This document shows positions 15,584 through 19,644 of a DNA stretch of 64,000 nt, piece after piece. Numbering within the stretch: position 1 is the stretch's first letter; the number at the start of each line of letters is the position of its first letter. The translations under genes were made by a program, and so were the position numbers. Below the pieces are notes generated by a model, which ran no database searches, was not told the DNA's origin, and saw nothing but the letters and a program-made list of their open reading frames with translations. Source of the stretch: an uncultured Planctomycetia bacterium (lineage in GTDB: Bacteria > Planctomycetota > MHYJ01 > CAYXQY01); contig CAZOLI010000009.1 in the NCBI GenBank assembly GCA_964580675.1, positions 7,008 through 71,007 on the forward strand, in the 5' to 3' direction.

Positions 15584-18196
15584 ATGTCCACGCCATTAAT
15601 GAAACAGTATTACCGGATCAAGGAACAGCATCCGGATGACATTGTGTTTTTTCACCTGGGAGATTTTTACGAAGTATTCGACGAGGACGCCGAACTTGTC
15701 TCCCGGGAACTGGACATCACGTTAACAAGTCGGTTTCAGGGAGAGGACGAAGTGCCGATGGCGGGGGTCCCGGTGCAGAAATCAGAAAGTTACATTAAGA
15801 GACTCCTCCAGAACGGACACCGGGTGGCCATTTGTGATCAGGTAGAAGACGCGGACGAGGCCAGCGGTCTCGTTGAACGTGACGTCGTCCGTGTGATTAC
15901 CCCGGGAACAATTACGGAGGAGGAATACCTTTCCGAGAAAAAGAATAATTTTCTTGCCAGTATTTACCTGGATGAGGACGAGGGTGGACTCGCATGGGCG
16001 GATCTATCCACGGGAACATTCAAATTAGAAAAAATTCCGGCGGATGCACTGCTCGACGAAATTTCCCGGATCGGACCTGCCGAATGTATTTCCTCCGAAT
16101 CTCTTCGTCACCGTTCGGACGACTTCTTCCAGGCTGTGGAGGACGCCGCCGGTTGCATGATGACCACTGTCCCCGAGTGGACCTTCGAACTCGAGACGGC
16201 CATTGATGTGCTTACGGACCATTTTGAAACCACGTTGCTGGACGGGTTCGGCATTAACGAACCCGGGGAGGGGGTCCGTGCCGCCGGTGCACTTATCGAA
16301 TACTTAAAGGAAACACAGAAGGGAAAACTGGACCACATCAAACGGCTAACCCCACACGACCGGTCCGGAACGATGGTCCTCGACAAAATATCCCAGCGAT
16401 CCCTGGAATTAACGGAAACCATCCGAACCGGGGAAGAGAAAGGATCCCTTATTCACATTCTGGATCGAACGGACACGGCAATGGGGGGACGGTTGATCCG
16501 GAGATGGCTCCTGGCCCCTCTGACCAACCCGGAGGAAATAAAACAGAGACAGGGAGCTGTGGAAAGCCTCAAGAACAATTATCAAATGAGGAATGAAATC
16601 AGGGAACAACTCAAGGAAGTATACGATATTGAACGAATCACGTCGAAACTGGGCAGTGGCCGGGCCACGCCCCGGGATCTTGTTTCGCTCCGAACTTCTC
16701 TTGCAAACCTGCCTCCTCTCCTGGAAACACTCGAACCCGGAACCGACCTCCTGGATAAGGTGCAGAACCGGGTTCATCCCCTGACGGATCTTCGGGAGGA
16801 GCTCGAAGAGGCGATTCAGGATAACCCGCCGAGTGTGCTTTCCGACGGCGGGATATTTCGGGACGGCTACAACGAAGAACTGGACGAACTCCGCGACCTC
16901 CAGGAAAGCGGGAAAGAATGGATGGCGGAGTTTGAACAGCAGGAAAAGGAAAAAACGGGCATCGACAACCTGAAAGTCGGGTTTAACAAAGTACATGGTT
17001 ATTACATCGAAGTAACAAAAGCGAAGACGGACCGGGTCCCGGAGGAATACGATCGGAAACAAACACTGAAAAACGCCGAGAGATATATCACACCGGAACT
17101 CAAAGAGAAGGAGAGTCAGCTGCTAAACGCCGAGGAACAGGCCAAGGACCTCGAATACAACCTGTTCCTCGAACTTCGAACAGAAACGGCCAAACAGATC
17201 GATGAACTTCAGAAGACGGCTCGAGCCCTTGCCGAACTGGACACCCTCGTTTCCCTTGCGACGGTTGCAGAGGAGAAGGACTGGCGAAAGCCGGAAATCG
17301 TCGAGGAACCCCTCATCAACGTGAAGGAAGGAAGACATCCGGTTGTTGAGGAAATTCAGGATGAACGATTCGTCCCGAACCACACGGAGATGAGTGTCTC
17401 GGACAACCGTCTCCTCATCATTACCGGGCCGAACATGGCCGGGAAATCAACGTATATTCGACAGGTGGGACTCCTCTGTATACTGGCCCAGATGGGAAGC
17501 TTTATTCCCGCGAGAAAAGGCACGATAGGCATTGTGGATCAAATATTTACAAGAGTCGGTGCGTCCGATGAACTAAGTCGCGGTGCCAGCACATTTATGG
17601 TGGAAATGACCGAAACAGCAAACATCCTGAACAATGCCACGAGAAGAAGTCTCGTCATCCTGGATGAGGTCGGCCGGGGAACCAGCACCACGGACGGTGT
17701 CAGCATTGCGCGCGCCGTCTGTGAGCATATTCATGATCGGCTTGGATCGCGAACTCTCTTTGCCACACACTATCAGGAATTGTCCGTGCTGGAAGAGGAA
17801 CTGCCCGGCGTGAAGAATTATCACTTCGGGGCAAGCGATCGGGAAGGGGACATCGTGTTTCAGCGAAAATTAAAACCGGGGGCCAGCGATCGTTCCTACG
17901 GCATCCACGTCGCGAATCTGGCGGGCATTCCGGAGGAGGTTGTTCGACGTGCGGAAATGATTTTGAAGAACCTGGAGGATGATCGACGGAACGTTGATCA
18001 ACGCCGATCAGAATTAAGCAGGGCCGCTGACCGAACACAAAAGAACATGTTCGTCTCGCCCGAAGCGGAGGAAAAAGCGGAACAGTTATCCGAAATTGAA
18101 GAAGTGCTGTCCGACGTCGACATAAACGAAACACCTCCCATCAGGGCCCTGGAAATTTTGAAAGAAATAAAACATCAATTGGGCGATGGAAGTTGA
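15584..18196 (+). CDS. mutS: DNA mismatch repair protein MutS
   Basis: TPLMKQY, FFHLGDFYEVF, TGPNMAGKSTYIRQ, STFMVEM, ILDEVGRGTST, FATHY, SYGIHVA. Confidence 0.98.
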   Translation: MSTPLMKQYYRIKEQHPDDIVFFHLGDFYEVFDEDAELVSRELDITLTSRFQGEDEVPMAGVPVQKSESYIKRLLQNGHRVAICDQVEDADEASGLVERDVVRVITPGTITEEEYLSEKKNNFLASIYLDEDEGGLAWADLSTGTFKLEKIPADALLDEISRIGPAECISSESLRHRSDDFFQAVEDAAGCMMTTVPEWTFELETAIDVLTDHFETTLLDGFGINEPGEGVRAAGALIEYLKETQKGKLDHIKRLTPHDRSGTMVLDKISQRSLELTETIRTGEEKGSLIHILDRTDTAMGGRLIRRWLLAPLTNPEEIKQRQGAVESLKNNYQMRNEIREQLKEVYDIERITSKLGSGRATPRDLVSLRTSLANLPPLLETLEPGTDLLDKVQNRVHPLTDLREELEEAIQDNPPSVLSDGGIFRDGYNEELDELRDLQESGKEWMAEFEQQEKEKTGIDNLKVGFNKVHGYYIEVTKAKTDRVPEEYDRKQTLKNAERYITPELKEKESQLLNAEEQAKDLEYNLFLELRTETAKQIDELQKTARALAELDTLVSLATVAEEKDWRKPEIVEEPLINVKEGRHPVVEEIQDERFVPNHTEMSVSDNRLLIITGPNMAGKSTYIRQVGLLCILAQMGSFIPARKGTIGIVDQIFTRVGASDELSRGASTFMVEMTETANILNNATRRSLVILDEVGRGTSTTDGVSIARAVCEHIHDRLGSRTLFATHYQELSVLEEELPGVKNYHFGASDREGDIVFQRKLKPGASDRSYGIHVANLAGIPEEVVRRAEMILKNLEDDRRNVDQRRSELSRAADRTQKNMFVSPEAEEKAEQLSEIEEVLSDVDINETPPIRALEILKEIKHQLGDGS

Positions 18197-18242
18197 TCGG
18201 GCTTGAATTACTCAATCAAATGTTTTAACCCATTTAATCCCG

Positions 18243-18587
18243 CAACACAAAAAATGCGCGATCCCGGATCGGTTGCCGGTCGGGAATTCGGCACGCCCGA
18301 CCGAACGGATACGGAGGAGGAAATTATCCTGATAGGTGGTACGGGGGATATTCCGAACCGGGTTCTTTCGAGGATTCCCGGGCCATTGCGCGGGAACAAA
18401 CAAATCGGCGTTCAGAATCTTCCTTCAATGACATGAAGAACCAAACTTGAAGGGGGAACACACGGAACAACAGACCGGGCAAGAACATTAGTAGTAATTT
18501 CTCTGCCCTTACAGCCGAAACGAACGATGCCGGCGGCCGGTATCGGCTGTGAGGAAACGTGACCGGGATCACGAATTTTTTGTGTTG
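18243..18587. other. 345-nt structured element bounded by 25-bp imperfect inverted repeats (candidate ncRNA or MITE)
   Basis: CAACACAAAAAATGCGCGATCCCGG (18243-18267) matches the reverse complement of 18563-18587 at 23/25 positions. Five internal hairpins. Confidence 0.55.
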
Positions 18588-18628
18588 TACAAACAATCCG
18601 AAGAACCATTTTGATTGCGGTCCGTGTT

Positions 18629-18711
18629 CGGATGCCTCAAACCCCGTAAGGGGACGATATCCTGACGACACAAAATGAACCGGACGGGAAAACGCGTCGC
18701 CAGGAGATCCG
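18629..18711 (+). promoter_or_regulatory. Candidate cis-regulatory RNA, c-di-GMP-I (GEMM)-like three-way junction
   Basis: P1 CGGAT/ATCCG; P2 TC-AAA-CCCC-GTAA-GGGG-AC-GA; P3 TCCTGACGAC/GTCGCCAGGA. About 110 nt upstream of the VOC gene. Confidence 0.3.
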
Positions 18712-18819
18712 CAGGCTCCGGCAGCGGGCTCGCTCAGAATCTTCGGCCATCGGGCAACACATTTTCCGGACAATCTTTCACGTGGATATGGTACTCTTGA
18801 AGCAGGAGGTAGGAAACAA

Positions 18820-19182
18820 ATGATTACGGACATCAACACGGTGTTGCTGCACGTTCAGGACCTTCGTCAGATGAGACGGTTTTATCGAGATGTGCTTGGA
18901 TTAAACATCGTGGATGACGGAAGCGAACTCGTGAACCTGAAATGTGGGGATGTCTTAATCGCTCTGGAAAAGGTCGAAGAAGAAATTCCCGAATCTCCCA
19001 TGGGGAAACAGACGTCTCTCATTCTGAACGTTACAAAATTTGACCGCCTCGTTCGAGTCCTTCGGGAAGCCGAAATTCCCATACGACGGGGACCGGTGTT
19101 AAACCGGGAGGCCGGAGTTCAGTGGTTAACCATTGAGGATCCGGAAGGACATGAACTCATACTGCAGGAACACATGAGTTAA
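18820..19182 (+). CDS. VOC/glyoxalase-superfamily protein
   Basis: VLLHVQDLRQMRRFYRDVLGL...IEDPEGHELILQE; strong AGGAGG SD. Confidence 0.88.
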   Translation: MITDINTVLLHVQDLRQMRRFYRDVLGLNIVDDGSELVNLKCGDVLIALEKVEEEIPESPMGKQTSLILNVTKFDRLVRVLREAEIPIRRGPVLNREAGVQWLTIEDPEGHELILQEHMS

Positions 19183-19212: not shown

Positions 19213-19289
19213 CTATGAAGAGACGCGAACGTGGTTCCCCTTCCCCTTGCTACCACTCTCACCTTTGCCCAGAAGAAGCTATTTTGGCG

Positions 19290-19635
19290 GGGTGTAAATC
19301 ATCATCTTTGCCGTCGGGGTCCGTCCCCGACCATATTTGGCAGGGATGCCTTCACCCCAATTCCGTATTGTTCCCTTGTTTCGGAAGAATCCGGGACCCC
19401 GAACATTTCCACCGCGGGTGGACGTATTCTCGCCTCTTTATCTTTATCCTTATCTTTATCTTAATCCACGGTCCTCCGGACCGTCCCGTCCCCCTCCCTC
19501 ACGGTCGGGGCTCTGGCTTTGGGGAAACAACCGTCTATAACAATCTCTTTTGCTCCACAGCACACCAGCCCCCGTGCTCCTCCGCTCCCCTGCTCAACTC
19601 CTCACTCCTTACTCCCCCCTCCTTACTGACCCACT
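19290..19635. repeat. Composite non-coding repeat, locus 2 (homologous to locus 1)
   Basis: 19422-19499 is nearly identical to 6483-6560, 19500-19630 aligns with 6241-6350, and 19291-19350 aligns with 6001-6060. Confidence 0.9.
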
Positions 19636-19644
19636 GTTGAGTCC

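Follow-up and report, generated by a model that had tools for sequence, protein, structure and literature searches.

A 345-bp element between inverted repeats behind mutS in a planctomycete genome, tentatively read as a relic of mobile DNA

In the genome of an uncultured Planctomycetia bacterium, the gap between mutS and the next gene downstream measures 623 nt and contains a 345-bp segment (18243-18587) bounded by two long inverted repeats. What is this element, and how did it come to lie there? The window analyzed here, a stretch of 64,000 nt, carries mutS on the plus strand at 15584-18196 (870 aa, MutS domains I-V by domain match), ending 46 nt before the element. A VOC/glyoxalase-family gene follows on the same strand at 18820-19182 (120 aa; PF00903, E 1.1e-10), and the 232 nt between the element and this gene (18588-18819) gave no Rfam match. 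An initial annotation of the locus had offered two explanations for the element, a large structured RNA or a MITE. We weigh these here together with three further readings: a neutral duplication, an invertible segment, and a pair of terminators.

The boundaries of the element are set by its two arms. Local alignment places the left arm, CAACACAAAAAATGCGCGATCCCGG, at 18243-18267 and the right arm, CCGGGATCACGAATTTTTTGTGTTG, at 18563-18587; the two pair at 23 of their 25 positions, and between them lies a non-coding interior of 295 nt (18268-18562), in which the sequence and its minimum-free-energy (MFE) fold show five short hairpins. This agrees with the initial annotation, which had described a 345-nt element after mutS with 25-nt ends matching at 23 positions. 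When the left region is aligned with the reverse-complemented right region, the repeat proves to be exactly 25 nt long and extends neither inward nor outward. By our own arithmetic, a genome of 3.57 Mb should contain about 0.02 inverted matches of 23/25 whose halves lie no more than 2 kb apart. When the whole genome was scanned for inverted repeats of 20 nt or longer with this maximum spacing, 44 pairs were found, which come down to a handful of loci, most of them repeat families. Therefore, the terminal repeat is not a product of chance.

No target-site duplication had been noticed before, and we found none of 2-10 nt at the ends of the element, even with offsets of 0-3 nt allowed. Joining the two flanks in silico to mimic an empty site likewise gave no target-site duplication, and the joined sequence had no notable structure (z = -1.1).

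The same element was recovered in independent assemblies. Two Logan contigs carry the locus: L015 (SRR14300226), identical to the window over 2284 nt, and L022 (SRR14300219), which differs from it at three positions, none of them within the element. In both, the element itself is 100% identical to that of the window, and these independent assemblies rule against an assembly artefact. All three assemblies show the same orientation, and both Logan contigs run unbroken through both arms; a minority of molecules in a flipped state is still compatible with this result. Farther out, a weak inverted match with one indel, CAATCAAATG/CATTTTGATTG, flanks the 25-nt arms at distances of 20 and 18 nt (18213-18222 and 18606-18616). 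Contig L022 differs at two positions within this outer match, which is probably due to chance.

Several open reading frames cross the element, namely 77/60 aa on the plus strand and 171, 65 and 63 aa on the minus strand. None of them matches Pfam, and no homologues were found among 1.84 billion representative proteins or, apart from the reading frame itself, among 5.8 billion clustered proteins. The codon scores of the gap reading frames lie between -0.19 and +0.04, compared with 0.20-0.25 for real genes and an average of -0.16 for shadow reading frames. Given these scores and the lack of Pfam matches and homologues, the gap is non-coding. A tblastn search also found no remnant of a Y1 transposase inside the element, and we rejected a coding or pseudogene reading on all of these grounds. 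The next gap downstream, which follows the VOC gene (19215-19640, 460-nt) and precedes a convergent FapA gene, is also non-coding; a 141-aa reading frame within it has a codon score of -0.19.

Comparison with related genomes shows that the gap lies where gene order has changed on both sides. The three genomes of the sister genus have a mutS of 66-70% identity, still preceded by the SPOR/TPR gene, and a convergent epimerase-like gene follows within ∼20 nt of mutS, with no gap at this position. In the genome studied here, the epimerase-like gene is found on a different contig (C13). Both the sister genus and other assemblies hold orthologues of the VOC gene, 78-85% identical, which there sit between a GATase-like gene and HtrA-like genes; the DNA upstream of them cannot be aligned with the gap and contains no comparable repeat. 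Since the relatives have a different gene after mutS and keep their VOC orthologues elsewhere, the gap represents a double synteny break, and the element marks a rearrangement junction beside mutS. The mutS-rpoS region of enterobacteria is likewise variable.

We found no second copy of the element in its own metagenome-assembled genome (MAG; 179 contigs, 3.57 Mb, 84% complete). BLAST with the element returned only the element itself from this 84%-complete MAG, so that the other copies for which the initial annotation had advised a BLASTN search did not turn up and the element is single-copy there. An arm search tolerating mismatches recovered the two known arms and no solo arm elsewhere in the MAG. 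Outside the MAG, BLAST found no relatives in first 40 and later 56 genomes from the class, nor in plasmids or phages, the exact arm pattern was absent from 185,579 GTDB species genomes, and the exact end patterns were absent from viral contigs.

The few matches that did appear were all rejected as chance. Searches with exact end patterns gave three of them (L016, L017 and L023), in unrelated AT-rich or coding DNA. Two of the three come from JGI metagenomes and lie in AT-rich DNA; the third was found among the species genomes with a paired-end pattern (12-nt ends spaced 306-336 nt apart), where it spans a pair of convergent genes in a Chitinophagaceae MAG and has nothing else in common with the locus. 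The remaining one, a 23/25 match to an arm in genome G025, falls in the coding sequence of a DHH/NrnA-like gene, at its 5′ end.

The nearest mutS is only ∼70% identical, which indicates that the collections hold no genome of the same genus; the best named mutS matches are Planctomycetota MAGs at 54-57% identity, a weak hint that the host belongs to a deep branch within this phylum or close to it.

Mobile DNA is present elsewhere in the genome. We found at least six matches to IS200-like Y1 transposases, one of them partial, and two of the six or more lie inside inverted repeats of 27-30 nt. One of these two is a single-copy 740-bp unit outside the window (G000:C3:107308-108047), in which a 27-nt inverted repeat (26/27) surrounds a 153-aa IS200-like Y1 transposase (PF01797, E 1.3e-27). 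Contigs C90, C150, C160, C100 and C135 carry at least five more Y1 homologues; the partial one on C135 is also placed within 27-30-nt inverted repeats. Three matches to DDE transposases (DDE_Tnp_1) are located on short contigs, and the rve and Mutator transposase families gave no match in the MAG. Neither the three DDE contigs nor the Y1 cassettes carry the ends of the element (CAACACAAAAAA); a transposase sharing these ends, as proposed for a check with the initial annotation, was thus not found in the MAG.

Two families of small repeats also occur in this genome. The first is a palindrome of 157 bp whose arms measure 28 nt (AGACCCGGTCTGAAAAGGTGCCGTGCAC), located at G000:C137:1482-1638 and also at L020:3563-3721, with other copies on contigs C163 (94%), C131 and C34 (both about 70%). 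An arm pair resembling it lies upstream of a VOC homologue in GCA_964606115.1. This element looks like a genuine multi-copy MITE-like family, and its sequence is unrelated to that of the 345-bp element. The second is a hairpin-forming unit of 71 nt (GCTCGGGCTGGAAAGCCCGAGC...), which recurs about every 155 nt at G000:C29:19518-19898 and is present in dozens of copies with 79-93% identity, many of them on short contigs or at contig ends (C83, C126, C138, C26, C41 and others).

Based on these observations, we tentatively propose, with a probability of roughly 0.38, that a small non-autonomous transposable element has decayed here into a relic, which now lies at a rearrangement junction. It could have been a MITE, now orphaned, or an insertion sequence with an internal deletion, and the junction would stem from a lineage-specific rearrangement that brought mutS and the VOC gene together. 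This proposal is consistent with the sharp edges of a repeat beyond chance, with the small size and non-coding nature of a segment assembled identically in independent assemblies, with its position inside the synteny break, and with a genome that is otherwise active in small mobile DNA (Y1, DDE and the 157-bp palindrome). The two mismatches between the arms would be consistent with an old element whose maintenance has ceased, and there is precedent for MITE families with a single copy in a genome (PMC10969869). What argues against a relic is the lack of a target-site duplication, of a second copy or solo arm in the 84%-complete MAG, of relatives in genomes, metagenomes, viral contigs, plasmids and phages, and of a transposase with matching ends. 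The suggestion of a MITE therefore holds in part: the 25-nt terminal repeats, the length of 345 bp and the absence of coding capacity agree with it, but target-site duplication, copies and partner transposase do not. Since three of the five features that define a MITE are absent, we infer an origin by transposition from the architecture and location of the element.

Four other readings rank below the relic in the following order: neutral duplication, inverton, structured RNA and terminator pair. According to the first, fold-back or template-switch repair copied 25 nt in inverted orientation during the mutS-VOC rearrangement, and the segment was never mobile and has no function. Its site exactly at the double synteny break would be expected from such an event, as would its uniqueness in the genome and all databases searched, the absence of a target-site duplication and arms that have since drifted at 2 of 25 positions. 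However, the other long inverted repeats of this genome derive mostly from mobile or repeat families, and no source copy can be identified outside the arm pair. Template-switch events also usually span tens of bases, not 295. We consider this origin unlikely, although it is the best placed of the alternatives.

According to the second, the element is an inverton, in which a site-specific recombinase crosses over at the 25-nt repeats and flips the 295-bp interior, thereby directing transcription toward the VOC gene or, as antisense, toward mutS. The geometry is suitable: inverted repeats enclose an intergenic segment of ∼300 bp, a gene begins 232 nt downstream, and a length below 300 bases is found in more than 75% of catalogued invertons (PMC11602134). 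A single copy and the lack of a target-site duplication are both expected of an inverton, and the inner and outer edges of the repeat are sharp. Against it, the MAG contains no serine recombinase (PF00239), and its three matches to tyrosine recombinases (PF00589) all lie on other contigs, two of them XerC/XerD-like by size and motifs and the third a fragment at a contig end. We found no sigma-70-like promoter on either strand between 17900 and 19200, although the consensus used may not be that of the host lineage. Furthermore, the arms lack an internal two-fold symmetry as found in hix, lox or dif-type sites, both the scan for long inverted repeats and the arm search show that no other locus of the genome shares the repeat, and the single orientation in three assemblies with unbroken contigs does not indicate flipping. 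Taking both sides into account, we regard an inverton as somewhat less probable again than a neutral duplication. One special case, an orphan inverton at work behind mutS and flipped by a recombinase whose gene lies elsewhere or in the 16% of the genome that was not assembled, appears very far-fetched. If it were true, its orientation would determine whether the VOC gene is transcribed or the 3′ end of mutS is read in antisense, and the antisense state would be a reversible modulation of mismatch repair.

The third alternative was one of the two original suggestions, namely a structured RNA with a function of its own, multibranched and closed by a 25-bp stem, transcribed either alone or as part of a mutS 3′-UTR or a VOC leader. 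All five inner hairpins described in the initial annotation are present (18277-18303, 18375-18396, 18422-18453, 18477-18508 and 18511-18550) and all are part of the MFE fold. The whole element also folds with a strong z-score on both strands (-5.8 on the plus strand, -6.0 on the minus strand). The arms are predicted to pair at -32.9 kcal/mol on the plus and -36.4 kcal/mol on the minus strand, and the closing stem, which on the plus strand consists of 13+2+8 bp, reaches a predicted mean pair probability of ∼0.9 even within 730 nt of context.

This signal comes almost entirely from the 25-nt terminal repeat. Without the arms, the interior (18268-18562) gave z-scores of -2.1 and -1.7, or -1.7 and -1.5 by our own dinucleotide shuffles. 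As a control specific for this genome, we folded 90 intergenic-like and 60 coding windows of 295 nt with dinucleotide shuffles. Among the 90 intergenic-like windows, 14% had z ≤ -2 and 21% scored at least as low as the interior. Since the interior falls within the intergenic background of its own genome, its density of nested pairing is ordinary. The initial annotation had taken this density as a sign of a large structured RNA or a MITE, but z-scores of -1.7 to -2.1 are reached by 14-21% of comparable gaps; the folding check proposed with it is thus positive for the whole element and negative for the interior. In general, a long terminal repeat alone yields an impressive z-score for a whole element, which vanishes when the arms are removed and the intergenic DNA of the same genome serves as control.

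The strands do not help the RNA reading either. The z-scores are equal on both strands, as expected of a repeat at the DNA level. Both arm mismatches (G·A and C·A) break the pairing on the plus strand, whereas one of them turns into G·U on the minus strand; in contrast, the CCTTCAA hairpin is lengthened by G-U pairs on the plus strand in the MFE fold. These two hints at the transcribed strand are therefore in conflict. A cmscan of the whole window against Rfam 15 at the gathering score found one tRNA elsewhere and no match at the element. At E ≤ 10, the region 18100-18900 gave three meaningless matches, all outside the element, and an ARAGORN scan for tRNAs and tmRNAs gave nothing. Neither GEMM nor any riboswitch of another kind was matched in the DNA behind the element (18596-18711) at this threshold. 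In agreement with the initial annotation, which had seen no full tmRNA, RNase P, SRP or group II signature, Rfam is thus silent on the element at either threshold. Finally, an RNA of this kind has no homologue and is absent from the sister genus, where the gap itself is missing. An unremarkable folding score and a lack of homologues had been named in advance as evidence against an RNA; both are found for the interior, so for this part the RNA reading fails. With no Rfam family, an interior at background, equal strands and no homologues, we consider a structured RNA improbable.

Least convincing of the four is a terminator or insulator pair, in which each arm would act as an outward-facing intrinsic terminator (hairpin plus T6) and the two together would stop mutS transcription before the VOC gene and antisense transcription before mutS: such sites are called at 18558-18573 on the plus strand and 18271-18259 on the minus strand and are the sole terminator-like sites between the two genes, but three sites found compare with 1.9 ± 1.5 expected from shuffles, the stems measure 5 bp, the right one reaches just -4.9 kcal/mol, the left one is absent from the local MFE fold, and the 295-nt interior is left unexplained, which makes this reading very improbable.

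Returning to the relic of a transposable element, its most likely present-day effect would arise if transcription from mutS continues through the element: the arms would then pair in the message, and a 25-bp stem would close the 3′-UTR of mutS. By analogy to Correia and ERIC elements, such a stem could be a target for a double-strand-specific RNase (RNase III) or could stabilize the message; cleavage by RNase III has been described for Correia repeats (PMC10969869, PMC2649163). Any such effect would presumably be a by-product and not a selected function. As known now, the element matters little and is one more orphan spacer bounded by inverted repeats in a repeat-rich genome. It would gain in interest if sequencing reads showed flipping of the interior or if RNA data revealed a discrete processed transcript.

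Among known systems, REP/REPIN sequences with their RAYT transposases differ from the element in that its arms are not dispersed copies and show no similarity to the repeat families of the genome; in a local fold, the arms also do not form convincing REP hairpins. With invertons such as fimS or the PSA-type segments of Bacteroides, as catalogued by PhaseFinder/DeepInverton (PMC11602134), the element shares the geometry of an intergenic, repeat-flanked segment of ∼300 bp upstream of a gene, as well as its single copy and the lack of a target-site duplication. Unlike invertons, it has no recombinase nearby, no sigma-70-like promoter site and no repeat in common with other loci. The IS200-like Y1 (RAYT-type) cassettes on contigs C3 and C135, of which the genome carries several, are likewise unique segments within inverted repeats of 25-30 nt, and they too lack a target-site duplication. 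In contrast to these cassettes, the element contains neither a transposase gene nor a remnant of one, and its arms and interior show no sequence similarity to them. Unlike bacterial MITEs, for example the Correia elements of Neisseria, ERIC and MITEAba12 (PMC10969869, PMC2649163), the element is single-copy, without target-site duplication, related copies or a partner insertion sequence, and its interior is not itself palindromic. It nevertheless resembles them in being small, non-coding and intergenic, in its terminal inverted repeats of ∼25 nt, which would form a long stem if transcribed, and in its position directly behind a gene, where MITEs alter 3′-UTRs.
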